Part shown: piece after piece, positions 3,665-32,759 of the stretch
Position numbering within the stretch: position 1 is the first letter of the stretch
Layout: every line of letters starts with the position of its first letter
NCBI GenBank assembly: GCA_964501335.1
Contig: CAZCTC010000010.1
Span: forward strand, 128,001 to 160,759
Length of the DNA stretch: 32,759 bases
Direction of reading: 5' to 3'
Origin: an uncultured Anaerolineales bacterium
GTDB taxonomy: Bacteria; Chloroflexota; Anaerolineae; B4-G1; SLSP01
Position numbers and translations under genes: made by a program
The notes under the pieces: model-generated
Told to the model about the DNA's origin: nothing
The model's database searches: none
Seen by the model: only the letters and a program-made list of their open reading frames with translations

Positions 3665-3800
3665 AAAAGAGATTTCACCGCAGAGCACGCGGAGATCGCA
3701 GAGAGAGAAGGGAGGAGATTTTCTTTAAATTCTTCTCTGTGCCCTCTGCGCCTCGGCGGTGAGTCTTCGGGATGGGCTATTTTCAGGACAGATAACCATG
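3665..3800 (+). repeat. Copy A of the 3' module of the composite intergenic repeat (gagatttcacc...ttctttaaattcttctctgtg...ggtgagtctt...gggctattttcaggacaga-N-ccATG). Its terminal ATG is the start codon of the downstream kinase.
   Basis: About 80% identical by eye over about 130 bp to 10064-10196. Shared boxes are gagatttcacc, ctttaaattcttctctgtg, ggtgagtctt and ctattttcaggacaga. Confidence 0.7.
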
Positions 3801-4923: not shown

Positions 4924-5182
4924 GAAAAAAAGCCTGTGTTTGGGCGCGCCCAAACATAAATAAAAAACGCAGTACCGCATAATTCACTCAGAACACACCA
5001 CCGAGACGCAGAGGCCGCGGAGAAAAAGCTTAAAAAGCCTCTTTTATCTCTCTCGGCGATCTCGGCGCCTGTTTACAACATCTTCGATCCGCGGTGTATT
5101 TCTTTCGGTTTGCCGTTGAGTTACTTTTGCGGTATTGCTAAAAAATTCTTTCCTTCGATCCAGCGCGTCGTATTTTACCATG
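4924..5182 (+). repeat. Degenerate or rearranged copy C of the composite intergenic repeat. It contains a loop-less 20-bp perfect palindrome TGTTTGGGCGCGCCCAAACA (4936-4956), cacaccaccgagacgcagagg and tccagcgcgtcgtat boxes, and ends in ccATG (5180).
   Basis: Boxes shared with the copies at 9938-10196 and 3665-3800 but in a different order. The palindrome sits where other copies have the hairpin. Confidence 0.5.
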
Positions 5183-9624: not shown

Positions 9625-9838
9625 CCATATCAGGCAACTTAAGGCGATTCATCAGTAGATCCCAGCTTTGGGACATCCCGCAAAGAGTATTTTCCCTGTA
9701 AGGTGCGACGCGCGGGAGGGGGGAGAGAGTTTTTTTATTCATTTTTTCGCGCGCCGTCTGCGGCGCGCGAAAAAATGGGCTTTCTTTCCCTTTTTCCGGG
9801 CGATTGCTGTTGCAAATGGTTTAAGTTGCCTGATATGG
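9625..9838 (-). repeat. Minus-oriented copy of the hairpin repeat (hairpin CATTTTTTCGCGCGCC-GTCTGC-GGCGCGCGAAAAAATG at 9739-9776; CGCGTCG and TTTGCGGGAtG boxes) bounded by 18-bp perfect terminal inverted repeats ccatatcaggcaacttaa (9625-9642) and ttaagttgcctgatatgg (9821-9838). MITE-like.
   Basis: The inverted repeats are an exact reverse complement. The internal boxes align with copy 9938-10196 when reverse-complemented. Confidence 0.65.
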
Positions 9839-9937
9839 CGCTGTCCCCTGTTTTGTTGTTAAGCAGCGACGCGATTCGATAGGAAGCGTTGCATGGGATC
9901 GCTGCGAGCGATGCGGGAGGGAGAGGGGGGAAGCGTA

Positions 9938-10196
9938 TGTCGCCAGGGCGGCTCTGGAAAAGCCTATGTTTTTGCGCGCATTCTGATGCGCGCAAAAACA
10001 TAAACAAAAAAATTCTCTCTCCCGGTCCAGCGCGTCGTATCTGGCCGGGAAAAGATCATTTGCGGGACGCTAAAAGAGATTTCACCACAGAGGCGCAGAG
10101 AGCACGGAGAAGAAGAGAGGAGATTTTTCTTTAAATTCTTCTCTGTGTTTCCGTGGTGAGTCTTTTCTGGGCCTATTTTCAGGACAGAAGGCCATG
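9938..10196 (+). repeat. Full-length copy B of the composite intergenic repeat. Order: left box tgtcgccagggcggctctggaaaagcc; hairpin TATGTTTTTGCGCGCA-TTCTGA-TGCGCGCAAAAACATA (9965-10002); A-rich tract; tccagcgcgtcgtat; second small hairpin cccggtccag...ctggccggg; catttgcgggacgc; gagatttcacc module; ctttaaattcttctctgtg; ggtgagtctt; ctattttcaggacagaaggccATG.
   Basis: Every module recurs in the other copies (3665-3800, 4924-5182, 8388-8502, 9625-9838, 26341-26813, 29515-29645, 31025-31125, 32500-32759). Confidence 0.75.
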
Positions 10197-10325
10197 CAGT
10201 GGCGGCACCCCGAAAAAAGGTGAAATACCCCGAGGTTTTTTTGCATCCTCTGGATTTGGATTATACTTAAGCTGTTTCCTCTCTGATTGATGTTCCATAT
10301 TTCATTTTGCCTAAGGAGATGCAGG

Positions 10326-13596: not shown

Positions 13597-15063
13597 ATGC
13601 AGCGCGGTGGTTTGTTTCTGGATTTACGGCGCAATTTACTTTATCTGTGCCTGGTAGGAATCGATTCCGCCTGGTTTGCTCTGCTGCTGCCTTTGTTGGG
13701 GGTGCAGTCGACCTTATCCTGGTCGCCGTTGATCTTGTGGGGTATGTTGGCGGTGGGGATGTGCGGCTGTCTGGTGGTGCTGGAGCTTTTCAATCGGATC
13801 GGTTTGGGGAGGCCCTGGTATCCGCTGGCCGTGGCGGCTCTGGTCCTCTTGACGATTGTGGGGCTGATGCGGGTGGTGATTTACAACGGCTGGCCCTTTT
13901 GGAGTTGGGGCTGGGGGGAGCAGATCCTGCTCAGCTTTTTGCTGTTTGAAACCTGGCCGCGGCCGGAGCTGGCGCTGGCTGCGACCGGCTTTTTTGTCTG
14001 GCAGCGGGCTACCTGGGCGACGCGTCGATCGCTGGATTGGCGTGATGTCAGCAGCAATTTCTGGTTGGGCCTCTTCTTTTTGGGCTGCGGCGGGCTCTTT
14101 TGGGAGTTGTGGTTGAAGCAGCCGGCGCCGTTGGCGTTTGTCTGGGGCTATTTTGGATTGGGGATGGTGGCGTTGGCGTTGACGCGGGCCCATACGGCGC
14201 CGTTGCTGGTGCGGAGCATGGGGGCAGAGCTTTCGCCGGTGCGGCTGGCTCAACTGGGGATGACGGTGGGCCTGACCTTGCTGATCGGCGGGTTGAGCTG
14301 GTGGGGGCTTTCACAGCCTTTAATAGGGTTTGTGGCCTGGCTGGGGCCGTTGTGGAACTTTCTCTTTGTGTTGGTGGAAGTGTTGGTGGTATTGTTGATT
14401 TTTGTCGGCTGGCGGTTCTGGCAGTTTATTTCGGAGCTGTTGAAGGGGGAGCTGCTGCCGGCCTTGCAAAATCTGGAGGATATCTCTCGCTCGATTCAGC
14501 AGCTGGGAGAACAATTGGCCCAGCAGGCCGGATTGAATTTTGTCTGGCCTCCCTGGCTCGGGCTGGTTTTGCGTATTGGTGTGGCATTGTTGATTTTGTT
14601 GCCGGGTTTGTGGCTGGTGCTGGTCTATTTGGGGATCATTCAGCCGCCGCGGCGCCGGGAGGACGACGAGTATGCGAATCGATTGTCGGCGGAGCGGTTG
14701 TTGTGGGATGGATTGGATTCGCTGCGCGATCTGGGCCGGTTGATGCGCCGGTATGGGTTCAGCCGGCAGATGCTGGCGGCGATTTCGGTGCAGAATCTCT
14801 ATGCCAATGTGTGTCGTTTGGGGCGGCGGCAGGGGCGGCCGCGGCGGCCGTCGCAGCCCCCGGATGCTTATTTGCCGCAGCTGGTGGCGGCTTTTGAGGG
14901 GCTGGATAGTCAGTTGTCCCGGATCACGGAGGCCTATATGCAGGTGCATTACGGGGATCGGTCGGTTACGAATGAGGAACTGGCCCGGCTGCGGAAGGAT
15001 TATGCGGAGGTGCGGGCGCAGGCGGGGCGGAAGCGGCGCCTGGACGTGAAACGTAAAACGTAA
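13597..15063 (+). CDS. Polytopic membrane protein with a C-terminal DUF4129-like domain (the third usual member of MoxR/DUF58 operons)
   Basis: About 10 hydrophobic helices. C-terminal region GRRQGRPRRPSQPPDAYLPQLVAAFEGLDSQLSRITEAYMQVHYGDRSVTNEELARLRKDY matches the DUF4129 pattern (R..G.P...S.TP.EY......L.......Y...RYG). Confidence 0.7.
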   Translation: MQRGGLFLDLRRNLLYLCLVGIDSAWFALLLPLLGVQSTLSWSPLILWGMLAVGMCGCLVVLELFNRIGLGRPWYPLAVAALVLLTIVGLMRVVIYNGWPFWSWGWGEQILLSFLLFETWPRPELALAATGFFVWQRATWATRRSLDWRDVSSNFWLGLFFLGCGGLFWELWLKQPAPLAFVWGYFGLGMVALALTRAHTAPLLVRSMGAELSPVRLAQLGMTVGLTLLIGGLSWWGLSQPLIGFVAWLGPLWNFLFVLVEVLVVLLIFVGWRFWQFISELLKGELLPALQNLEDISRSIQQLGEQLAQQAGLNFVWPPWLGLVLRIGVALLILLPGLWLVLVYLGIIQPPRRREDDEYANRLSAERLLWDGLDSLRDLGRLMRRYGFSRQMLAAISVQNLYANVCRLGRRQGRPRRPSQPPDAYLPQLVAAFEGLDSQLSRITEAYMQVHYGDRSVTNEELARLRKDYAEVRAQAGRKRRLDVKRKT

Positions 15064-15250
15064 AACGTATTTCCTGTCCTGCGCGGCGTTACAAGGCCGG
15101 GGGGCGGTACTTCAAAGGATGAAAATGGTTTGTCGGGTGCAGTTTCCTGGGGTCTGCGAATCCCAGGCTACCCTAAGGTCGCCCCTTTGGGGCTGAGAAG
15201 GCTCGACAAAAAGGTGCCTGCTAATTTAGCGAAGGCAAAAAAGGGGAAGG

Positions 15251-16312: not shown

Positions 16313-18343
16313 ATGATGGAGATTTCGGGTTATAAAATTCGCGTGAAAATAGCGCGGCTGGCCTTAAGCGGGCAATTTATCTGCCTTACTGGAATCCTGG
16401 TCATTTATTTTGGGCTGGCGTTGGGCTATAGAATTGCGGGGCCTTTTAATCGCCCTGTATGGATGAATTTGTATTTATTGCTGGCGCTGGATATCTGTTC
16501 TTTTATTTCCGTTTTCTGGTTGAGAAGATCGTTGACTCAGGCGGTGTGGGGGTATGCCTGGAGCAATCTCATTTATGTGGTTTTGATGCTGGGCTATCGG
16601 CTGCTCGATTTCAACTCTCCGAAAATCGATCCTCCTTATATTATCTTTTTATTGCATTTGAATATCTTTTCGTTGGGGATTATATTTGGTTTTCGTCCGG
16701 CGTTTAAATATGCCCTGGCGACCGTCGTCGTATTTTTAGTGGTGGGAATTTTCTATACCGAACGGCTGTCGATTGTGGTGGGAATTTTGTTTGCTTTGCT
16801 TATGACCTTTCCTCCTTTGGGGATCGATAAGTTAATGGCGGAGTTGCGGCAAAGCCAGGAAAAATTAAGTATCATTTTTCGAGAATCTCCGGATGTGATT
16901 TTAGTGTTGGATCCGGCGACAGGGAGAATTTGGGAGGGGAATGCCGCTGTCAAATGGGTGTTAGGTTACGTGGAAGAAGAGCTGCGTGGGGAACCTTTCA
17001 GTAAATTGTATGAATCGGATTCGCCGTTGGGAAAGGAGAAACTCTGGTATGTGGAGGCTCAGCGGCGGGATACCCACGGTTCCCAGTTCTTTTTGAAAGC
17101 CGATGGAACGCGCTGTCCGATGGATTGGACGGCGGCGCGCATTCCCTGGGATGAGGATTCGGCGATCCTGATTACGTTACGGGATGTGACGGAACGTTAT
17201 CAGGCGGAGGTGGAGCGAGCTCGTTTTACGGCCCAGTTGGGGGCCGCGGCCGAACTGGCGGCCCGGATCAATGCTTATCTGGATGCCGATCAGTTGTTGC
17301 CGATGGTGGTGGCTCAGGTGCAATCCCGCCTGGATGTGGCCCGGGCGGCGATCTATTTGTTGAATGAGGATTTGCAGGCGGCGCTTTCTCCTGCTGTTAA
17401 AGAGAGTGTGAGCCTGGGGGCATTGATGGCCTCGTCCAGCGTTATTGCCCGGGTGGTTCAGAACCGGGAGATGGTCAGGATTGACGATCTTCAGGAGTTG
17501 TCGTCAGAAGATCTTCCGTTTTTGCAGGCGGGGATGCAGACTCAACTGGTCGTTCCTTTGATTGTGCAGGATTGTCTGTTGGGCGTGATGGATCTTCAGG
17601 ATCTGCGGCCGGGGCGTTTTCATACCATCGATCTGGATGTCTTTTTCACGCTGGGGGTTCAGATCGCGACATCGCTTGAGAATGCGCGGCTCTTTGGGGA
17701 ATTGCAGAAGACGGCCCGTAATTTGCAGGGCCTTTCGCATCGTCTGGTGGCGGTGCAGGAGCAGGAGCGGCGGAACATTGCCTGTGAACTGCACGATGAG
17801 ATCGGGCAGATGTTGACGGCATTGAAGTTAATGCTGGATATGAGCAGCGGCGCCGGGGATTCGCAACAGGAGGCGCGGGATATGGTGCGCGATCTGTTGG
17901 AGCGGGTGCGCAACCTTTCGTTGGAGTTGCGGCCGCCGATGCTGGACGATTTAGGGATTTTGCCGGCGCTGGTCTGGCTTTTCAACCGTTATACCACGCA
18001 GACCCATATCAAAGTGAGTTTTCGCCATTCCGGGTTGGAGCGGCGTTTTACCCCGCAGATTGAGACGGCGGCCTATCGAGTGATCCAGGAATCGTTGACC
18101 AATGTCGCCCGCCATGCTCGTGTGCAAGAGGTCGAGGTGCGGTTGTGGGCGGATGAGGCGCAATTGCAGGTGCAGGTGGAAGATAACGGTCAGGGATTTG
18201 ATCTGGACGAAGTGCTGAGCCAGGCGGGTTCCAATGGATTATCGGGGATGCGGGAACGGGTTATGTTGTTGGGCGGAGAACTGACGATCGATTCCCGGCC
18301 GGGGGCGGGGACTTCGCTGGTGGCGGAGTTGCCCTTGCAATGA
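16313..18343 (+). CDS. Sensor histidine kinase, NarL-partner type (polytopic membrane domain - PAS - GAF - HisKA_3 - HATPase_c). A TTG at 16301 overlapping the moxR stop is an alternative start.
   Basis: HisKA_3 H-box CELHDEIGQMLTALK. HATPase N/G boxes (LTNVARHA, DNGQGFD, GLSGMRERVMLLGG). GAF block before LENARLFGELQ. AT-richer N-terminal membrane domain with a PVWMNLYLL motif. Confidence 0.9.
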   Translation: MMEISGYKIRVKIARLALSGQFICLTGILVIYFGLALGYRIAGPFNRPVWMNLYLLLALDICSFISVFWLRRSLTQAVWGYAWSNLIYVVLMLGYRLLDFNSPKIDPPYIIFLLHLNIFSLGIIFGFRPAFKYALATVVVFLVVGIFYTERLSIVVGILFALLMTFPPLGIDKLMAELRQSQEKLSIIFRESPDVILVLDPATGRIWEGNAAVKWVLGYVEEELRGEPFSKLYESDSPLGKEKLWYVEAQRRDTHGSQFFLKADGTRCPMDWTAARIPWDEDSAILITLRDVTERYQAEVERARFTAQLGAAAELAARINAYLDADQLLPMVVAQVQSRLDVARAAIYLLNEDLQAALSPAVKESVSLGALMASSSVIARVVQNREMVRIDDLQELSSEDLPFLQAGMQTQLVVPLIVQDCLLGVMDLQDLRPGRFHTIDLDVFFTLGVQIATSLENARLFGELQKTARNLQGLSHRLVAVQEQERRNIACELHDEIGQMLTALKLMLDMSSGAGDSQQEARDMVRDLLERVRNLSLELRPPMLDDLGILPALVWLFNRYTTQTHIKVSFRHSGLERRFTPQIETAAYRVIQESLTNVARHARVQEVEVRLWADEAQLQVQVEDNGQGFDLDEVLSQAGSNGLSGMRERVMLLGGELTIDSRPGAGTSLVAELPLQ

Positions 18344-20409
18344 AGACATCTAAGGAAAGCTATTTAGAAATCGATTATTCTGAACAGCTTGCCCGGGAGA
18401 AGATTGCCAGGGTGATTTTGCTTAGCAATGTTATTGCCCTTGGAGCCCTTTTTATTTTCAATCTGGTTAGATTAATCTTAATGTTAACGGAAGAGCCGGG
18501 GTATCAACCCGCCTGGTATTCATTCTTTAGTATGGCGGCGTTGGTGGGGGGCGGGATTGTTGCGTTGGGTTGGATCAGGAGATCGCTTTTTGCGGGAATG
18601 GTGTTTTACGCCTGGTTTGCATTGTTTTGTGTCCTGGTAATGATTGTGGGAGCCTTTATATGGGGAGGTCTGCAACGTTACCCTTTAATAGTGTTAGTTT
18701 TTTATATAGGGATTTTATCTCTCAGTGTTATTGTAGGATATAAGACAGCTTTACCTTATGCAATTGTTGTGTCTTTGGTAATGGTGGTCTGTGGGGTAAT
18801 TTTTAATGATGTGCTTTTTTCAGTACCTTTGGTCGTTACCTCTTATTTAATGGTTTTGCCAGCCTTATTCATTGATTATATGACCGATAGTATAAGACAG
18901 AGTGAACAACGGTTTAAAATCCTTTTTCAGGAATCGCCGGATTTGATTGTGGTCGTTGAACGAGAAACGGGGATTGTGTTACATGTCAATTCGGCGTTGG
19001 AACGTTTTACAGGGTATTTTCCTGAAATGTTGATAGGCAAATCCTTTTTTGATGTTTTTCCTCAAGAAGTGTTTCCTGACTTAACTGAAATTTCAGAGGG
19101 TCAACCCCGAGCCGAATTTCGTGCTGTTGCAGATCGAGCTTTTTATCGGTTGGATGGGACTCTTATTTTTATGGATTTGAGTATAGCTTCAATAGTTTGG
19201 ATGAAGAGATCTGCTTTGTTGGTGGTTTTAAGAGACGTTACTGGGCGCCATCGCGCAGAGGAAGACCGTCAACATTTTACGAAACAATTGCGAGTGGCCG
19301 CAGAGTTGACTGGCCAGATTAATACCTGTCTGAACTCTGAAGCCTTAACTTTCATGATAGAAAATCAAATGGAGCAACTTTTGAATTTGAGTCGGGTGAG
19401 AATTTTTCTCTTTGATGAAAAAAGTCAAACCCTTGTTCGATATGCAGGTGGCTCGGAAATTGTGAAATCTTATCATTTGCAGGATCCCTACCTAGTGGCA
19501 CAAGCTGCCCATGATCTCATTCTGGTTCAGGCCCTTAAAGAATCAAAGATGGATGATGGGAGGAGATTGGATTCTGAGGGGGATATGGGAGGGCAGGTAG
19601 CAGTACCTTTGGTTTCACATGGAAAACTTTTGGGAGTGTTAGACATTCAAGATATCAGTCCAAATCGATTTCATCCCGGTGATCTGGATATTTTCTATAC
19701 TTTGGCAGGGCAAATTGCTGTAGCTTTGGAAAATGCTCGTTTATTTGGAGACTTGCAGAAGACGGCGATGCATTTACAGGGGCTTTCTTTGCGGTTGCTT
19801 GAGGTTCAGGAGCAGGAACGTCGGAATATTGCGTGTGAGTTGCATGATGAGATGGGCCAAATGTTAACTGCTATCAAGTTGCTTTTGGAAATGAAGAAGT
19901 CCAAATTGGGGAGGGCGGCAGATAATTCGGATCAGGAAATTGGGGATCTTGTGTCGGATTTGTTGAATCGAATTCGGAATCTCTCTTTGCAATTGCGACC
20001 GCCGATGCTCGATGATCTGGGGATTTTACCAACTTTAGTATGGTTGTTTAATCGTTATAGCCATCAAACTCAGATAAAGGTTAATTTTAAGCATGTGGGA
20101 TTGGAACGCCGTTTTTCTTCTCAGGTAGAGACAGTTATCTATCGTGTAATTCAAGAATCTTTAACTAATGTAGCACGTTACGCTATGGTGGATAATGTCG
20201 ACGTTTATATCTGGGGGGATGAATCAATTTTACGGTTACAGGTCGACGATAATGGAGTCGGGTTTGATTTGGATAAGGTTTCAGGTCAATTGAGCTCTAA
20301 CGGCCTTTCTGGCATGCAGGAACGGGTTACTTTACTGGGGGGACAATTCTTGATAGATTCTAAACCAAATTTTGGAACCCATTTGATGGCGGAAATTCCC
20401 CTGCAATAA
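18340..20409 (+). CDS. Sensor histidine kinase, tandem paralog of 16313-18343 (membrane domain - PAS - GAF - HisKA_3 - HATPase_c), distinctly AT-richer than its neighbour
   Basis: ATGA start/stop overlap with the upstream kinase. H-box CELHDEMGQMLTAIK. ENARLFGDLQKTAMHLQGL is nearly identical to the paralog. Membrane-domain motif EPGYQPAWYSFFS. Confidence 0.9.
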   Translation: MKTSKESYLEIDYSEQLAREKIARVILLSNVIALGALFIFNLVRLILMLTEEPGYQPAWYSFFSMAALVGGGIVALGWIRRSLFAGMVFYAWFALFCVLVMIVGAFIWGGLQRYPLIVLVFYIGILSLSVIVGYKTALPYAIVVSLVMVVCGVIFNDVLFSVPLVVTSYLMVLPALFIDYMTDSIRQSEQRFKILFQESPDLIVVVERETGIVLHVNSALERFTGYFPEMLIGKSFFDVFPQEVFPDLTEISEGQPRAEFRAVADRAFYRLDGTLIFMDLSIASIVWMKRSALLVVLRDVTGRHRAEEDRQHFTKQLRVAAELTGQINTCLNSEALTFMIENQMEQLLNLSRVRIFLFDEKSQTLVRYAGGSEIVKSYHLQDPYLVAQAAHDLILVQALKESKMDDGRRLDSEGDMGGQVAVPLVSHGKLLGVLDIQDISPNRFHPGDLDIFYTLAGQIAVALENARLFGDLQKTAMHLQGLSLRLLEVQEQERRNIACELHDEMGQMLTAIKLLLEMKKSKLGRAADNSDQEIGDLVSDLLNRIRNLSLQLRPPMLDDLGILPTLVWLFNRYSHQTQIKVNFKHVGLERRFSSQVETVIYRVIQESLTNVARYAMVDNVDVYIWGDESILRLQVDDNGVGFDLDKVSGQLSSNGLSGMQERVTLLGGQFLIDSKPNFGTHLMAEIPLQ

Positions 20410-21853: not shown

Positions 21854-23659
21854 TTGTTGGTTGTAAGGGAAAGGAGTCCAGTGAGTGATCGTTTGCAATC
21901 TTCTTCATCTGTTCGTTATAAAACAGCTCGTTTAATTTTATGGTTTAATGCTTTCTTTTTGACTGGGGCGACTGTTCTGAGCCTTGGGTTGTTTATATTA
22001 AAAAGATTCTATCAACCCGGTTATGAACCTGCCTGGATTAATTTTTTTAGCACAATTGCGTTATTTGTTTCTGTATGGGTTTCTTTATATCGGATCCGGT
22101 ATTCTCTTTTTCAAGGTTTTTATTTATATGGCTGGTTGGGGTTGATTTGTATTACTATAGTGCTTTTTTATAATGTTTTTGTAGAGCATGAGGTTGAAAT
22201 TCCTTTTATTGTTTTTGCGTTGCATATTGGGATTTTTGCTGCCGGATTGATCCTGGGATTAAGATATGCGTTGATTTATGCCACCGTAGTCAGTGTTATT
22301 GTGACCATAGTGGGATTTTATTGTAAGAATACAGGATTTGCGGTTGCTGCGGTCGGTCTGGCCTACGGCATGACCCTCCCTTCCTGGCTGGTGGATCAGC
22401 TGGAGCGCGATCTGCGGAAAAGCGAAGAGAAATTTATTACGATCTTCCGGGATGCGTTGGATGTGATTCTGGTGGTGGATCTCGATACCCGGGTGATTCT
22501 CAAGGTGAACCGGGCGGTCGAGACGGTGTTGGGGTATGAATCCGAGGTGTTGTTGGGCCAGCCGGTTTCGATTTTATGGTTGCCGGAGGGGGAGCTTTCC
22601 AGTTACCATTTCTGGGAAGATTTGCGCACCAGGAAGGCAATTTTTGAATCGACTTCGTTCCGGCGGGCTGACGGGCTGCTCTGTCCGGTGGATTTGACGG
22701 CGACGGTGATCCCCTGGGAAGATCACAATGCGGCGCTGGTGACGCTGCGCGATGTGACGGAGCGCTATTATGTGGAGGAGCAACTGCGCCGCCATCAAGA
22801 ACAACTGGAACAGCAGGTGCAGGATCGTACGGGGGAGTTGCAGACGGCCAACGATCAGTTGCGGATCGAGGTTTTGGAACGGCAACGAGCCGAAGAGACG
22901 TTGCGGGATCAGGCTGTGGAGCTGGAGGCCCGGAATGTGGAGCTGGATGCGTTTGCCCATACGGTGGCCCACGATCTGAAAAATCCCCTGACTAATTTGA
23001 TCGGCTTCAGCAATCTGCTGGAACGACGTCTGGAACGCCTTTCGCCCGACAAAATAGCTTCGTATGTGCAGATGATCGGTCAAAACGGCCGCAAGATGAA
23101 CAACATCATTAATGAGTTGTTGTTGCTGGCCAGTGTGCGCAAGATTGAAGAGGTGGAGCGCGATGTGCTGGATATGGCCACCATTGTGCATGAGGCGCAG
23201 GATCGCCTGCGGGATATGCTGGCCGAATCTCAGGCGGTGGTGACGGTGCCCGAGCAATGGCCGCCGGCTTTCGGTTACGGGCCCTGGGTGGAAGAAGTAT
23301 GGGCCAACTATATCAGCAACGCGATCAAGTATGGCGGAGTGCCGCCGCGGGTGGAGTTGGGCGCTGAGCGGCTGGTGGATGGGCGGGTGCGCTTTTGGGT
23401 GCGCGATAACGGCAAGGGATTGACCCTTGAGGAACGGGCTCAGCTTTTCACGCTTTTTACCCGGCTGGATAAGGTCCGGGCCCGGGGGCATGGTTTAGGC
23501 CTTTCGATTGTGCGGCGGATTGTGGAGAAATTGGGCGGTGAGGTCGGTGTGGAGAGCGAAGTAGGGCAGGGAAGCTGTTTTTCCTTTATTTTACCGGCGG
23601 CTGCGGTATCTATGGCGGTGCAGCCCACGTCGACCCCGTTGCTGGGCCGGCAGGATTGA
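21854..23659 (+). CDS. Sensor histidine kinase (membrane domain homologous to those of the two preceding kinases - PAS - coiled-coil - HisKA - HATPase_c). The GTG at 21881 after SD aaggag (21871-21876) is the more likely start.
   Basis: Membrane motif QPGYEPAWINFFS. H-box VAHDLKNPLTNL. N/G boxes (YISNAIKYG, DNGKGL, GHGLGLSIVRRIVEKLGG). Nucleotide composition switches from AT-rich to GC-rich at about 22380, just after the last TM helix. Confidence 0.85.
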   Translation: MLVVRERSPVSDRLQSSSSVRYKTARLILWFNAFFLTGATVLSLGLFILKRFYQPGYEPAWINFFSTIALFVSVWVSLYRIRYSLFQGFYLYGWLGLICITIVLFYNVFVEHEVEIPFIVFALHIGIFAAGLILGLRYALIYATVVSVIVTIVGFYCKNTGFAVAAVGLAYGMTLPSWLVDQLERDLRKSEEKFITIFRDALDVILVVDLDTRVILKVNRAVETVLGYESEVLLGQPVSILWLPEGELSSYHFWEDLRTRKAIFESTSFRRADGLLCPVDLTATVIPWEDHNAALVTLRDVTERYYVEEQLRRHQEQLEQQVQDRTGELQTANDQLRIEVLERQRAEETLRDQAVELEARNVELDAFAHTVAHDLKNPLTNLIGFSNLLERRLERLSPDKIASYVQMIGQNGRKMNNIINELLLLASVRKIEEVERDVLDMATIVHEAQDRLRDMLAESQAVVTVPEQWPPAFGYGPWVEEVWANYISNAIKYGGVPPRVELGAERLVDGRVRFWVRDNGKGLTLEERAQLFTLFTRLDKVRARGHGLGLSIVRRIVEKLGGEVGVESEVGQGSCFSFILPAAAVSMAVQPTSTPLLGRQD

Positions 23660-25935: not shown

Positions 25936-26295
25936 ATGGAGAATCGATCCAGACCCGGGTTGGAACCGGTGGAACAGTTGATTGAACGGCTGGGGGCCGG
26001 GGCTGCCTTTGGGGCGCCGACGCAGGTTGAAGGCGGCACGGTCATCCCGGCGGCGGAAGTTCAGATCGGCTTTGATTATAGTGCCGGGGCCGATTCTGAA
26101 AACGGCGCTGGCCGGGCGCATGCCTGGGGCAAAGCGGCTCCGCGCGGATTTATTCAGGCTACCGAACAGGGCATCGGCTACCGTCCGGCGGTCGATCCGG
26201 TGCGGATTGTCATTGCTTCTTTGTTGACCTGGGGTTGGACGGTTTACTGGATCACGCATATGGTGCGGGCTCTGGCCCGGCGCCCCAAAGGGTGA
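25936..26295 (+). CDS. GerW / YtfJ-family (sporulation/germination-associated) small protein
   Basis: SD aagggag 25923-25929. Pattern L.ERL....AFG.P.QVEGGTVIPAAEVQIGFDYSAGA...G...A.G then a C-terminal hydrophobic segment, as in the YtfJ/GerW family. Confidence 0.65.
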   Translation: MENRSRPGLEPVEQLIERLGAGAAFGAPTQVEGGTVIPAAEVQIGFDYSAGADSENGAGRAHAWGKAAPRGFIQATEQGIGYRPAVDPVRIVIASLLTWGWTVYWITHMVRALARRPKG

Positions 26296-26340
26296 AAATG
26301 CAGCGGAAGTAGACAGCATCAAGTAGACAGTAGACAGCCT

Positions 26341-26813
26341 GTGTCGCCGGGGCAGCTCTGGAAAGGGCTATGTTTTCGTGCTTAGCCCTCACCCCAACCC
26401 CTCCCCATGCAGTAGTACCGGTGTAGCGCGCTTTCGGGTGATTCCTGGTGAAGATGCGCGGCCGGCATGGAGGTGAGGGGCTTAAGATGACGTCGCCGGG
26501 GCGGCTCTGGAAAGGGCTATGTTTTCGTGCTTAGCCCTCACCCCAACCCCTCCCCATGCAGTAGTACCGGTGTAGCGCGCTTTCGGGTGATTCCTGGTGA
26601 AGATGCGCGGCCGGCATGGAGGTGAGGGGCTTAAGATGACGTCGCCGGGGCGGCTCTGGAAAGGGCTATGTTTTCGTGCGCATCAGAATGCGCACGAAAA
26701 CATCAACAAAAAACTCTCTCCCGATCCTGCGCGGCGTAGCTTAGGGGGAAAGTATCATTTGCGGGACGCCACAGGGTTGACCTGTTTTCAGGACCGTCGT
26801 GAGGTGATTTATG
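26341..26813 (+). repeat. Copy D of the composite repeat. It contains a 148-bp unit tandemly duplicated 2.3 times (26345-26640). Each complete unit splits the family hairpin with a 111-bp insert bounded by imperfect inverted repeats (ttagccctcacc ... ggtgaggggcttaa). The intact hairpin TATGTTTTCGTGCGCA-TCAGAA-TGCGCACGAAAACAT lies at 26667-26703, followed by the cctgcgcggcgta and catttgcgggacgc boxes and ttttcaggac...ATG.
   Basis: Units 26345-26492 and 26493-26640 are identical except for one base (gcagctctgg vs gcggctctgg). The third unit continues into the intact hairpin. All boxes match the other copies. Confidence 0.7.
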
Positions 26814-26948
26814 CCTTTTGTGGAAGAAACCGATCAACAAATTACCCTTGAGTTCAATTTTCTGGATATCCCCCTGTTGATTTATATGCCGGGTAGCACA
26901 AAGCCGCTTGTTCATTATCCCGATAATCGAAGTAAAAGGTAGGGTGAA
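26811..26948 (+). CDS. Possible 45-aa small ORF (MPFVEETDQQITLEFNFLDIPLLIYMPGSTKPLVHYPDNRSKR). Its ATG is supplied by the 3' end of repeat copy D and its stop abuts the SD of the next gene.
   Basis: SD-like gaggtga 5 nt before the ATG. Unbiased composition. No homology I can recognise. Below the ORF-track length cut-off. Confidence 0.2.
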
Positions 26949-27455
26949 ATGAAGCGGATCAAATTGCTGAGGCCTATGCGAGAGCCACCGCGTTACGATG
27001 TCTATCTGGTTCTGCGCGAGCGGATTTTGACGACTCGTCCCGAGGATCTGGGCGTGCCGGCCGAGACGGAAGGCCGGGAGCCCTGGGGTGTTTTGATGGA
27101 AATGGCCTATCCTGACGGCATGGCTTCGCTGGTGGCGATGGGAACGGGGGATGCCAGCCTCTATTTCAGCAGCGGACAGGGGGTCCTGGGTGATCTCCAT
27201 CAGCGACGGGTACGCCAGGCAACCCAGGCTTTTGTCAAGGCGGCGCGGCATTATCTTTCCTGGATGTTGCCGGCTGAGCAGTGTCCTTTACCCGGGATGG
27301 GACAGGCGCGGTTCTATATTTTGACACCGGATGGGGTCTTTACTGCGGAGGCCGGGATCATGGAGCTGATCGGGCGACGGCATTCTCTGGCCCCTTTCTT
27401 TTATGCCGGGCAGGATGTGATTACAGGGCTGCGAATGGCGACGGAAAAGCAATAA
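26949..27455 (+). CDS. Hypothetical protein (168 aa)
   Basis: ORF with SD aaggtagggtga. No motif I can name. Confidence 0.5.
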   Translation: MKRIKLLRPMREPPRYDVYLVLRERILTTRPEDLGVPAETEGREPWGVLMEMAYPDGMASLVAMGTGDASLYFSSGQGVLGDLHQRRVRQATQAFVKAARHYLSWMLPAEQCPLPGMGQARFYILTPDGVFTAEAGIMELIGRRHSLAPFFYAGQDVITGLRMATEKQ

Positions 27456-29514: not shown

Positions 29515-29645
29515 GTTGGTTGGGAGAAAAATCTATTTTTTCGCGCGCCGTCTGCGGCGCGCGAAAAAATAAACAAAAAAATTTCCCCCATCCAGCGTGT
29601 CGTTTCGAGCCGAACAAAAGCCTTTTGCGGGACGCTAAAATGCTA
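29515..29645 (+). repeat. Repeat copy with hairpin TATTTTTTCGCGCGCC-GTCTGC-GGCGCGCGAAAAAATA (29534-29571), then aaacaaaaaaatttccccc, tccagcgtgtcgt and ttttgcgggacgctaaaa boxes, in the convergent gap between the methyltransferase gene and obg
   Basis: The hairpin core is identical to the one at 9741-9774. Flank boxes match copy B. Confidence 0.7.
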
Positions 29646-29662
29646 ACCGCACAAGTTGAAAA

Positions 29663-30931
29663 TTATTCTTCTTCGCGCCACTCCAATTCGTAATCCCCAA
29701 TGCGTACCAGATCGCCCTCCTGGACTCCGGCTTTGCGCAGCGCAGAGAGCACTCCCTGGTGTTCCAGATAGCGGTGTAACCGCATCAACGCATCATCCAT
29801 ATTCAACGGTGTCCGGCGAACGGCCCGTTCGATCTTGCCGTTGGTGACCCGCCAGATGCCGTCGTAATCGCGTTCTACTACGACCGGTTCCTCGGGTTCG
29901 GGCCGGAAGACCGGCGTCTGAATTTCTTCCGCGGGCGGCGGTGGGGTTTCCTGCAACAGCTGATAGGCCCGGCCCAACAGCGGGCGCAGGTTTTCCGTGG
30001 TGGCGCCGGAAATACCCCAGACTTCATAGCCCATCTTTTCCAGCGCTTCTTTGATGGTGGGGAAGGCTTCCCGGGCTTCGGGAATATCCAGTTTGTTTAC
30101 GGCCACGATTTGCGGCCGTTCGGCCAATCCATGGCCGAAGGCGGCCAGTTCCGCATTGATGGTGGTGAAATCCTCGATGGGATCTTCTGCCGAGCCGTCC
30201 AGCAGATGGAGCAGGATGCGGGTCCGCTCGATATGTTTCAGAAATTCCAATCCGAGCCCTTTGCCTTCGCTGGCGCCTTCGATCAGGCCTGGAAGGTCTG
30301 CCAGCACAAAGGTGTTATTGGTACTCAACGCGACGACGCCCAGGATGGGATGGAGGGTGGTGAAGGGGTAATCGGCGATGGCCGGTTTGGCGGCCGTCGT
30401 GGCGGCCAGCAGCGTGGATTTGCCGGCATTGGGCTTGCCGACCAGACCGACATCGGCCAGCAATTTCAACTCCAGATGAATCCAGCGATCTTCGCCGGGT
30501 TCCCCGTGTTCTGCGATGCGGGGGGCGCGATTGTTGGACGTCACGAAATGTTTATTGCCTCGTCCGCCCCGGCCGCCCCGGGCCACGACGTAACGGGTCC
30601 CTTTTTCGGTCAGATCGGCGAGCAGTTCCCCGGTTTCGGCATCGCGGACCATCGTGCCGGGGGGGACGAGAATGACCATGTCCTTGCCGGCGGCGCCATA
30701 TTGATCCTTGTTGCGGCCGTTCTCGCCGTTGTCGGCGAGAAACTGGGGGTGGTGGGCAAACATGTAGAGGGTGTTGAGATGGGTATCAACTTCCAGGACG
30801 ATGTCCCCGCCCTTGCCGCCGTCGCCGCCGGAGGGGCCGCCGAAGGGGACATACTTTTCACGCCGGAACATGGCGGCACCGTTGCCGCCGTCGCCGGCCT
30901 TAACGTAAATTTTCACTTCATCGTAAAACAT
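29663..30931 (-). CDS. obg: GTPase Obg/CgtA
   Basis: N-terminal Obg fold MFYDEVKIYVKAGDGGNGAAMFRREKYVPFGGPSGGDGGKGGDIVLEVD. G1 GKPNAGKST. G3 DLPG. G4 NKLD. C-terminal OCT-like domain. Confidence 0.95.
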   Translation of the reverse strand: MFYDEVKIYVKAGDGGNGAAMFRREKYVPFGGPSGGDGGKGGDIVLEVDTHLNTLYMFAHHPQFLADNGENGRNKDQYGAAGKDMVILVPPGTMVRDAETGELLADLTEKGTRYVVARGGRGGRGNKHFVTSNNRAPRIAEHGEPGEDRWIHLELKLLADVGLVGKPNAGKSTLLAATTAAKPAIADYPFTTLHPILGVVALSTNNTFVLADLPGLIEGASEGKGLGLEFLKHIERTRILLHLLDGSAEDPIEDFTTINAELAAFGHGLAERPQIVAVNKLDIPEAREAFPTIKEALEKMGYEVWGISGATTENLRPLLGRAYQLLQETPPPPAEEIQTPVFRPEPEEPVVVERDYDGIWRVTNGKIERAVRRTPLNMDDALMRLHRYLEHQGVLSALRKAGVQEGDLVRIGDYELEWREEE

Positions 30932-31024
30932 TCAGGTTCCTCGCTTTGGTTACACTGCGCCCTCTACGTATACTACATAGTTGCAGAAAAGTCAAAAAAG
31001 AAAGTAGACAGGAAGATTGCACGG

Positions 31025-31125
31025 GTTGGAAAAAAGTCCGTGTTTTTGCGCGCATTCTGATGCGCGCAAAAACACAAACAAAAACTCTCTCCGTTTATCC
31101 CGCGCGTCGTTTTTTACCAGGAAAG
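31025..31125 (+). repeat. Repeat copy with hairpin TGTTTTTGCGCGCA-TTCTGA-TGCGCGCAAAAACA (31041-31074), then aaacaaaaactctctcc and cccgcgcgtcgt boxes, between the obg start and the MFS gene end
   Basis: The hairpin core is identical to the one at 9965-10002. Flank boxes match. Confidence 0.7.
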
Positions 31126-31141
31126 CACCGGCTGTGGGGCG

Positions 31142-32416
31142 TTAATTTTTTCCCAATTTCACTTTTTTAAAGAACATAAAGGCCAGAGCATTGATCAGGA
31201 TGGCCGCGATGAAAAGTGCCGACATGCCGAAGAGATCGACCAGGCCGCCGCAGAGTCCGCTCAGGATCAGGGTGACCCCGAAAACGGTATTGGCAAAGCC
31301 TATCGCCAACGTTCGATCATCGGCGGGAATAATTTCCATCAGCAGCGTTTGGCCGGAGATGGCTTCCATGGGACTGAGCAGGCCTACCAGGGCAAAGATC
31401 GGATAGGCGGCCATGTAGGCGGGGAAGGGGAAGCCCGGCGCGAAAAGTCGACTGCTCAACAGGTCCAGGCCGAGCGCCAGTATGGCCAGCAATCCCCAGC
31501 CCAGAGCGGCCCCGCACAAAATCCAGCGGTGTCCCCGCCGATCTGCGATCCAGCCCCAGGGGTAGTTGGCGATCAATCTGAAAAAGGTCACGATGGTCAG
31601 ATAGTCGGTAGCGGCCTGGGCCGGGGCCTGGAGGGTGCGCTGGGCCTGGAGTGAATAGAAGGGGATTACGATCATGCCCAAAAAGAGAAAGCTGCGCCCC
31701 AACACCATATTTCGATAGGTGGCGTCATTTTTTAGATAATTCCAGCCGCGGCGCAGTTGATTACTGAGGGAGTTGACTGCGCGGGTGGGGCCCGGCGGTT
31801 CTTTGGTCAATGAGAAGATGACCAGAGCCAGGCCTCCTACGATGGCGGAGATGAAGATCAGGAGGGCGTAGTTGCGGGGGAAAGAGAGGCCGCCGCTGAG
31901 GATCGGGCCGATGATCTGGACGCCGGCGAGGGCCAGCAGGCCGGCGCTGAGCTGGCGTAAGGCGAACATTCGCCCGCGTTGATGGGGAGCGATGGTTTTG
32001 ACCGTCACTTCCAGGAAGGGGATGCCGGCCAGTCCGGAGGTAACCCGTCCGGCGAAGTAGATCAGGTAAAAGGCGACCAGCAACGCCGTCGGTTCGCGAA
32101 TCCACCAGAGGGCGGCGGCCAGGGAGAGCCAGGTTGCCACCCGGACGATGGTCAGCCAGCGGTAGATGATGATCTGGCGAGGGAATTTTTGCAGCCAGCC
32201 GGAGATGAAGATTTGGGGAAGATACCAGCCTCCGGTGTTGATGGGAGCGATGAGCCCTAACAGGATGTTGGATTGGGTGAGCTGGCTGGCGAACCAGAGG
32301 AGTACCAGATTGGCATCCATGAGGGCGTCGGAGAAAGTGGAGATTCCGCCGTTGGCGACATTGAGTGCAAAGGCTTCCCGGCTTTCGCGCGGAGTGAGTT
32401 GTTCTGTTTGGGCCAT
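31142..32416 (-). CDS. MFS (major facilitator superfamily) transporter, 12 TM predicted
   Basis: 424 aa, hydrophobic throughout. MFS motif-A-like GWIADRRGHRWIL and GRVTSGLAG segments. SD aggatgaa before the minus-strand ATG. Confidence 0.85.
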   Translation of the reverse strand: MAQTEQLTPRESREAFALNVANGGISTFSDALMDANLVLLWFASQLTQSNILLGLIAPINTGGWYLPQIFISGWLQKFPRQIIIYRWLTIVRVATWLSLAAALWWIREPTALLVAFYLIYFAGRVTSGLAGIPFLEVTVKTIAPHQRGRMFALRQLSAGLLALAGVQIIGPILSGGLSFPRNYALLIFISAIVGGLALVIFSLTKEPPGPTRAVNSLSNQLRRGWNYLKNDATYRNMVLGRSFLFLGMIVIPFYSLQAQRTLQAPAQAATDYLTIVTFFRLIANYPWGWIADRRGHRWILCGAALGWGLLAILALGLDLLSSRLFAPGFPFPAYMAAYPIFALVGLLSPMEAISGQTLLMEIIPADDRTLAIGFANTVFGVTLILSGLCGGLVDLFGMSALFIAAILINALAFMFFKKVKLGKN

Positions 32417-32499: not shown

Positions 32500-32759
32500 G
32501 GCCCCCGGCATGGCCGTCTGTCCTGAAAATAGCCCCGTCTAAGGTGCGACGCACTTTCTATCCCTGAAACCGACGATTCAAACGACTCAACGTGGGAACA
32601 AGTCGTCTGTCCTTGCAAGATCAGAGTGCGTTGCACCTCTTTGAGAAATCCTCCTCACCCGCACAAGGCCCCTCTCCCGTAAGCTACGCCGCGCAGGATA
32701 GGGGGAGAGTTTTTTTGTTTATGTTTTCGCGGGCTTCAGAAAGCCCGCGAAAACATAGG
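32500..32759 (-). repeat. Minus-oriented copy of the composite repeat (hairpin TATGTTTTCGCGGGCTT-TCAGAA-AGCCCGCGAAAACATA at 32720-32757; cctgcgcggcgtagctta and ctattttcaggacagacggccATG boxes) upstream of the MFS gene. Cut by the window end.
   Basis: The reverse complement aligns with copy D (26700-26800) and with the 3' module of copies A and B. Its ATG at 32509-32511 opens a frame that runs out of phase into the MFS start. Confidence 0.65.

Follow-up and report, generated by a model that had tools for sequence, protein, structure and literature searches.

The 32,759-nt stretch of DNA analysed here (the window), from an uncultured Anaerolineales bacterium, contains a short tandem array in which a hairpin-forming sequence seems to be interrupted. 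The question is whether this array records a second small mobile element that targeted the hairpin and was then amplified together with its target, as the original prediction had proposed, or whether it arose by rearrangement of the repeats themselves. We extended the window past its end with the overlapping JGI contig Ga0248168_1009156, so that approximately 40 kb of genome could be examined. The evidence points to ordinary repeat turnover, i.e. a real, recent and small tandem duplication within one copy of a repeat, and does not support a nested mobile insert.

Anatomy of the tandem array

The array occupies positions 26343-26679 and was recognized by TRF as 2.3 copies with a period of 149 nt and 99% matches (2.26 copies of the 149-nt unit in the array). 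A direct count of the self-comparison gave 187 of 188 matches at an offset of 149 nt, versus ~58 of 188 (~30%) at offsets of 147, 148 and 150. The identity of this head-to-tail array of 149-nt units is far above chance, and the array is a tandem duplication. Unit 1 (26343-26491, plus strand) and unit 2 (26492-26640, plus strand) are each 149 nt long, and their sole mismatch is an A at 26354 versus a G at 26503. The near-identity of the units, with one differing base, was thus correctly described in the original prediction, and the period of 148 given there has to be replaced by 149. It had also described a third, partial unit that runs into an intact hairpin; this unit exists, and the hairpin starts at 26668 rather than at 26667.

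The layout of the array is P-A-B-A-B-A-R-tail, all on the plus strand. Segment A (39 nt, GTCGCC...CGTGC) runs from the 5′ end of the repeat element to nucleotide 12 of the 14-nt left arm of its hairpin, and R is the remainder of the hairpin beyond A. Segment B, predicted as a 111-bp insert, has 110 nt (TTAGCCC...GATGAC), does not belong to the hairpin, and is flanked on both sides by A as 39-nt direct repeats. The first A (26343-26381) carries the only variant of the array (26354 A) and is followed by the first B (26382-26491), in which the left 58-59 nt are an orphan sequence and the right ~50 nt (26441-26491) are associated with the repeat family. The second A (26492-26530) is identical to the third, and the second B (26531-26640) is identical to the first. 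The third A (26641-26679) is the partial unit and continues into the intact hairpin at 26668-26703, which has 14-nt arms (ATGTTTTCGTGCGC and GCGCACGAAAACAT) and an 8-nt loop (ATCAGAAT). The tail that follows (26704 to ~26775) contains AACAAAAAA, CTCTCTCCC, ATCCTGCGCGGCGTA and TTTGCGGGACGC. Together, the third A, the hairpin and the tail make up a complete element at the 3′ end of the array (~26628/26641-26775, plus strand; nhmmer E = 1.7e-46).

The first A agrees with the second and third at 38 of 39 positions. Compared with the A segments of other family copies it agrees at 31-33 of 39-40 positions, and A segments of different copies in general agree at only 31-35 of 39-40. Given that the units are >99% identical and the A segments within the array 38-39/39 alike, both the A-B-A core and the extra unit are recent, in keeping with the predicted recent amplification. 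The duplication has no implied function and alters only the spacing between the open reading frame (ORF) at 25936-26295 and the 26811, 26949 and corA genes downstream of it.

The module that precedes the first A, termed P (26278-26342, plus strand), contains GTAGACAG three times (26309-26316, 26323-26330 and 26330-26337); the window as a whole has four copies versus 0.18 expected. P can be aligned over 52 nt, with ~85% identity and with all three GTAGACAG included, to the sequence upstream of A in the family copy at 32797-32658 (CGGCACCCCGAAGGATGAAAATTCAGTGGAAGTAGACAGCGGCAAGTAGACAGTAGACAGCCCGT). Because the triplet recurs there, we regard it as a module of the family and not as a local oddity. 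P begins 18 nt upstream of the end of the stop codon (26293-26295) of ORF 25936-26295, which places the last six codons of this ORF in repeat sequence. The repeat may therefore be the source of the C-terminus and stop of the ORF (26278-26295). Related motifs, CCCNAAGGRTGAAAAT in form, are present at about 10209 and 15113. The triple direct repeat after the stop had been predicted correctly, and neither Pfam nor NCBIfam has a profile that supports the name GerW given to the ORF.

A modular family of intergenic hairpin repeats

The repeat family was delimited in the 40 kb by pattern search, repeat finding and an nhmmer profile. A pattern for the hairpin arms had 12 matches versus 0.41 expected, and 11 intact hairpins with arms of 14-16 bp were identified, every one located between called genes. 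The full element is ~135 nt long and consists of A (which ends in the left arm), the hairpin and the tail, the parts of the latter being AAACAAAAAA, a CTCTCYCCC box, a conserved ATCCWGCGCGKCGT and TTTGCGGGACGC. Four copies in the 40 kb are full length and include A; others consist of hairpin and tail, or of the hairpin only.

In addition to the element at the end of the array, there are three full-length paralogues. One (9926-10076, plus strand) is made up of A, hairpin and tail, and what precedes its A is unrelated; over 9939-10070 this copy is 81% identical to the element at the array 3′ end. Another (32797-32658, minus strand), which crosses the window end at 32759 into Ga0248168_1009156, has an uninterrupted P-A-hairpin-tail organization. 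The last (33054-32904, minus strand) lies past the window end, and a homologue of the right half of B abuts its A. Copies with hairpin and tail but no A occur at 29526-29639 (plus strand), at the 3′ end of obg (29663-30931, minus strand); at 31027-31144 (plus strand), at the 3′ end of an MFS gene (31142-32416, minus strand) and with a single GTAGACAG upstream at 31004; and at 9673-9783 (minus strand), in inverse orientation and divergent from the 9926-10076 copy. Hairpin-only copies are found at about 4929, 8434, 15257 and 29456.

Pairing in the hairpin is maintained: all 16 pairs are kept among seven aligned copies, eight of them through changes on both sides (compensatory). The loop reads TCTG in five of the seven copies and its reverse complement, CAGA, in two, including the copy at 26668, and the 5′ flanks of the hairpins are variable (GGCT, GCCT, ATCT, GTCC and others). 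P, A, hairpin, tail, a tail-extension module and the right half of B combine variably among copies, and tandem repetition occurs at this one locus only within the 40 kb.

Searches of Rfam gave no match for the whole window at gathering thresholds or for 26250-26960 at E <= 1. The family is absent from the loci of the nearest Obg relatives and from 119 kb of other fetched loci (histidine-kinase paralogues, other organisms). A gapped pattern for the family tail, which matched four copies in the window, had no match in metagenome or viral contig collections, which evidently do not contain this organism. The family is best read as a lineage-specific modular intergenic repeat, with a 36-nt palindromic hairpin at its core, of an uncultured, Anaerolineae-like member of the Chloroflexota.

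Two regulatory interpretations of the element were rejected. The hairpin is not a canonical intrinsic terminator, as its GC core has T on the 5′ side and A on the 3′ side on both strands, the reverse of a terminator. Runs of T follow the second stem and, 4 nt on, the hairpin in the minus orientation of the element only. Inspection of the tail by eye gave no convincing sigma-54 or sigma-70 promoter, and a consensus scan was at background level.

Several other sequence features were noted in the window and just past its end. A separate, conserved motif, GGGCYTATTTTCAGGACAGANNNCCATG, occurs at 3774-3800 (plus), 10169-10197 (plus), 32535-32509 (minus) and 32878-32852 (minus, past the window end), directly on the apparent start codons of unrelated genes (that of the histidine kinase gene at 3798, what may be an in-frame start upstream in the MFS gene, and those of short ORFs); it looks like a shared 5′-UTR/ribosome-binding-site module that may have been propagated with the repeat family. 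A further module, CTAAAAYSCTAACCGCACARGTYGAAAATT, is present at 29636-29670 (plus), after the tail of the 29535 copy, and at 33140-33100 (minus, past the window end), before the B right-half homologue of the 33054 copy. This suggests that family units might chain head to tail in the order tail, CTAAAAYSCTAACCGCACARGTYGAAAATT module, B right half, A. The copy at 9673-9783 is bracketed by a perfect 18-nt inverted repeat (CCATATCAGGCAACTTAA and TTAAGTTGCCTGATATGG, at 9625-9642 and 9821-9838, 178 nt apart), which could mark an invertible or inserted segment. At 15049-15075, a tandem AAACGT AAAACGT AAAACGT lies beside a partial family tail (CCTGCGCGGCGT, 15077-15092). The window also encodes paralogous histidine kinases with PAS, GAF and HisKA_3 domains, both in tandem (ORFs 16316-18343 and 18340-20409) and ~5.5 kb apart (16891-17210 versus 22459-22778). 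The proteins are 44% identical, with 71% identity in DNA repeats of ~112 nt.

The family shares several features with the REP/BIME repeats of Enterobacteria, Pseudomonas and Stenotrophomonas (in particular BIME-2 and atypical BIMEs, in which REP-containing units are repeated in tandem). These are likewise short, dense, imperfect extragenic palindromes, and within the 40 kb, at 11 hairpins, the present family shows the same pattern of a short imperfect extragenic palindrome in many copies. In both cases the palindrome is kept by complementary changes, as described for REP sequences (PMC2817692), and hairpins are combined with other motifs in mosaics. BIMEs typically consist of tandem hairpin-containing units with length polymorphism between strains (PMC2817692). 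There is, however, no sequence similarity between the two, the phylum differs, the hairpins in the repeated units are truncated and do not alternate in orientation, and the tail of the family is long (~70 nt) and oriented and contains a second conserved stem. No cognate RAYT (Y1 transposase) was found among genes with Pfam hits across the ~40 kb. In RAYT-type REPs the palindrome is preceded on its 5′ side by a conserved GT[AG]G head. Such a head is absent from the foot of the hairpin in this family, where GTAGACAG lies no closer than 30-60 nt upstream, as part of module P. The BOX elements of Streptococcus pneumoniae (boxA-boxB(n)-boxC) are also modular interspersed repeats with an internal module whose tandem copies vary in number, the count of boxB differing between strains by unequal crossover or by excision and reinsertion (PMC3049150). 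The difference is that boxB is a regular module at many loci, whereas the A+B tandem is known from one locus and half of B is an orphan. The family is thus not demonstrably a member of either group, and by analogy appears to resemble both.

Copy number of the unit in independent assemblies

Among searchable assemblies, the organism is represented only in the JGI metagenome 3300022666 and in the Logan run SRR6476076. Two independent contigs of the JGI assembly both contain A-B-A, so that this core did not arise as an artefact of the assembly from which the window derives. Contig Ga0248168_1000393 (83 kb) has the order P-A(A)-B(C)-A(G)-R and a single B; its end is exactly 127 nt (inclusive) from position 46 of B. 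Contig Ga0248168_1009156 has T versus C at this position; it starts at position 13 of A, right after the A/G site, and reads B(T)-A-R-tail. These ends are those expected of a de Bruijn graph with k = 127 that is tangled by the repeat and its variants. The contigs show at least two haplotypes of the last unit and a path with one B. They give no confirmation of the allele with two B copies, which is seen in the assembly of the window alone, and the number of units is either polymorphic or still in doubt.

It is possible, if rather doubtful, that the second 149-nt unit was created by expansion in the assembly or by a mixed-strain consensus, in which case the true structure would be A-B-A-hairpin with a single B, maybe with C/T strain variants of B. 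The JGI assembly does break here, one k-mer from the C/T site in one contig and just past the A/G site in the other, and a unit of 149 nt is close to a typical short-read length, so that copy number is hard to establish without read pairs or long reads. Against this, a de Bruijn graph of a true duplication with A/G at position 12 of A, and hence two in-edges, predicts the contig start at position 13. The C variant is present in both B copies of the window, which therefore did not come about by simply merging the two JGI contigs end to end.

Logan contigs end within family hairpins at window positions 9760, 26684 and 29562, and in or beside a family palindrome at 4991; the JGI contigs end at 26553 and 26507. 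As independent short-read assemblies end in or near the palindromes, the family is a systematic cause of fragmentation for this genome. The practical value of the locus is mostly in this respect, and its number of units should not be trusted without spanning reads.

Segment B and the history of the locus

The junctions of B are central to the choice between insertion and rearrangement. The original prediction had the hairpin split right after its left arm by the insert. The break in fact falls after 12 of the 14 nt of the arm, and the right half of the hairpin (GCATCAGAATGCGCACGAAAACAT) never follows B; instead, a family element begins at its usual 5′ end (GTCGCC...) directly after B. A comparable arrangement is found upstream of A in the 33054-32904 copy, where the right half of B (ATTCCTGGTGAAGATGCGCGGCCGGCATGGAGGTGAGGGG..CTTAAGATGAC directly before GTCGCC) can be aligned to ...ATTCTTTGTGAAGATACGCTGCCGGCATCAAGATGAGGGGGAGGGCTCAGATCGC directly before GTCGCC. 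The score of this homologue was 52, versus a null maximum of 34.9 +/- 3.1 (40 kb, both strands), with 33 of 40 positions identical. Because it abuts A there, the junction between the right half of B and the following A is a family junction, and the junction between A and the left end of B (CGTGC joined to TTAGCCC), which occurs twice in identical form, is the only novel junction of the structure.

No part of the 40 kb is significantly similar to the left 58 nt of B; this includes the flank of the 9939 copy and the family tails on either strand. An apparent likeness of the left half to the reverse complement of one tail, seen by eye, was reached by 7 of 200 shuffles with no correction for multiple tests and was discarded. 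No alignment was obtained between B and the upstream flank of the 9926-10076 copy (score 14 versus 14.6 for the null). A coding role of the array was considered and rejected as well. At 26472-26538, GGAGGTGA is followed 13 nt later by an ATG that opens a 15-codon ORF (MTSPGRLWKGLCFRA and a stop codon), which spans the junction between B and A and stops at a TAG made where A meets B. The ATG is absent in the paralogue, and differences between copies follow the pairing of the hairpin and not codons, which also applies to an 84-aa ORF at 26597-26851. The 15-codon ORF, being unconserved in the paralogue, is probably fortuitous.

We consider it unlikely that B is a small non-autonomous mobile element, such as a MITE or an IS1397-like targeter of hairpins, that inserted in the hairpin and was amplified together with its target. 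Insertion into REP hairpin loops has precedents in IS1397 and ISKpn1 (PMC2817692), the left junction of B lies within the family hairpin, and an inverted repeat is present near the termini of B, as had been predicted. This repeat (26382-26393 and 26472-26485, CCCTCACC and GGTGAGGG) is short and weak, with 8 perfect bp and 3 bp more after one bulge, and its right arm stops 6 nt inside the right end of B. In a comparison of the two halves of B, 30 of 1000 shuffles reached it; when only the termini were considered, a test chosen after the repeat had been seen, 1 of 2000 did. Furthermore, the right arm recurs beside A in the 33054-32904 copy, together with ~30 nt of its upstream sequence and the 6-nt spacer; this copy has neither the left half of B nor a partner for the inverted repeat.

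Other properties of B also differ from those of MITEs, IS1397 and ISKpn1. The right junction lies outside the hairpin, at the 5′ boundary of the element, and B is bracketed by copies of A with no short target-site duplication around it (the flanks are ...CGTGC and GTCGCC..., or GATGAC on the right if B ends at the inverted repeat). The fold of B is not unusually stable relative to shuffles (z = -1.4 and -0.8 for the two strands). No second full copy of B exists in the 40 kb, and only its right half recurs, beside A. An exact-pattern scan with a 26-mer of B gave no match in metagenome or genome contig collections, and a degenerate pattern for the right half had none in a viral contig collection, bringing the public collections scanned to three; such scans cannot detect diverged copies, and the organism is evidently absent from these collections. 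B is likewise absent from the loci of the nearest Obg relatives and from the 119 kb of other fetched loci. A second mobile element that targeted the hairpin is thus not borne out, the right half of the supposed insert being a module of the family itself.

The locus is probably one copy of a mosaic intergenic repeat that underwent an illegitimate join and then a tandem duplication. Among GTDB representative genomes, the Obg proteins most similar to that of the window are encoded in MAGs of Anaerolineae and Thermoflexia, with amino-acid identities of 70% and 65%; the downstream 168-aa protein is without relatives at more than 50% identity, and there is no close strain or species for comparison with an orthologous empty site. 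The 32797-32658 copy can serve as a paralogous stand-in for the empty site, as P-A-hairpin-tail is uninterrupted there. The ancestral state would have been this same arrangement, still present in the paralogue 6 kb away. In a first step, an illegitimate join would have been made within the hairpin, just past base 12 of its left arm, and would have attached B and a 39-nt A, generating A-B-A. In a second step, unequal crossover or slippage between the 39-nt direct repeats would have added one 149-nt unit, giving A-B-A-B-A. What the sequence shows is the anatomy, the near-identity of the units and the membership in the family of P, A, the hairpin, the tail and the right half of B; the order of these events, the mechanism of the join and the source of the left half of B are inferred.

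Secondary structure is known to stall replication and to provoke template switching. Most economically, replication stalled at the hairpin would have switched template to a donor with the whole of B and then A. No such donor, with the left half of B, the right half and then A, was seen in the ~40 kb, and the template switch is to be read as a proposal. Template switching or slippage at quasipalindromes reportedly leads to hairpin-bounded duplications, deletions and loop inversions (work attributed to Ripley in 1982 and to the Lovett and Ehrlich laboratories). Shared with the locus are an end-point inside a hairpin arm, a flipped loop and direct repeats that flank the amplified segment; here, by contrast, the process would be known from its products alone, and microhomology at the junction cannot be assessed without the donor. 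The flipped loop of the 26668 copy fits template switching within the hairpin, a circumstantial point since two of seven copies have the flip. A counterpoint to the proposed history is that the first two A segments are near-identical although the sequence on the left, P in one case and the right half of B in the other, joins A at a natural family junction in both, which requires a near-identical donor or later homogenization.

Excision of the 149-nt A+B unit as a circle and its site-specific, single-strand re-integration at the hairpin, in the manner of attC or IS200/IS605/RAYT-like systems and with one unit gained per integration, is extremely unlikely: A-B-A-B-A-R is the exact product of an A-bearing circle integrating at the chromosomal boundary of A and R, and the break is at a fixed position of a conserved hairpin, but unequal crossover gives the same product without special machinery, no recombinase, RAYT or tnpA is among the genes called over ~40 kb, A is joined to B at no other locus there, and the hairpin is without the conserved GTAG/GTGG head of RAYT-type REPs. 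Very unlikely, too, is that A+B constitutes a very small mobile module that is excised as a single-stranded circle and re-integrates specifically at a fixed position of the palindrome, through a putative HUH/Y1-type or other recombinase encoded elsewhere. Were this true, A+B would be a new hairpin-targeting micro-element in the Chloroflexota, with the surrounding family as its target and vehicle.

With an illegitimate join followed by tandem duplication as the favoured history, the locus provides a clean case of a rearrangement that ended within a palindrome whose pairing is maintained. It also documents dense, modular, hairpin-centred intergenic repeats in an uncultured lineage of Chloroflexota that is without close sequenced relatives. 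If the whole genome has hundreds of copies and a cognate transposase, REP/BIME-type biology would be extended to a new phylum, a worthwhile result and not a surprising one.
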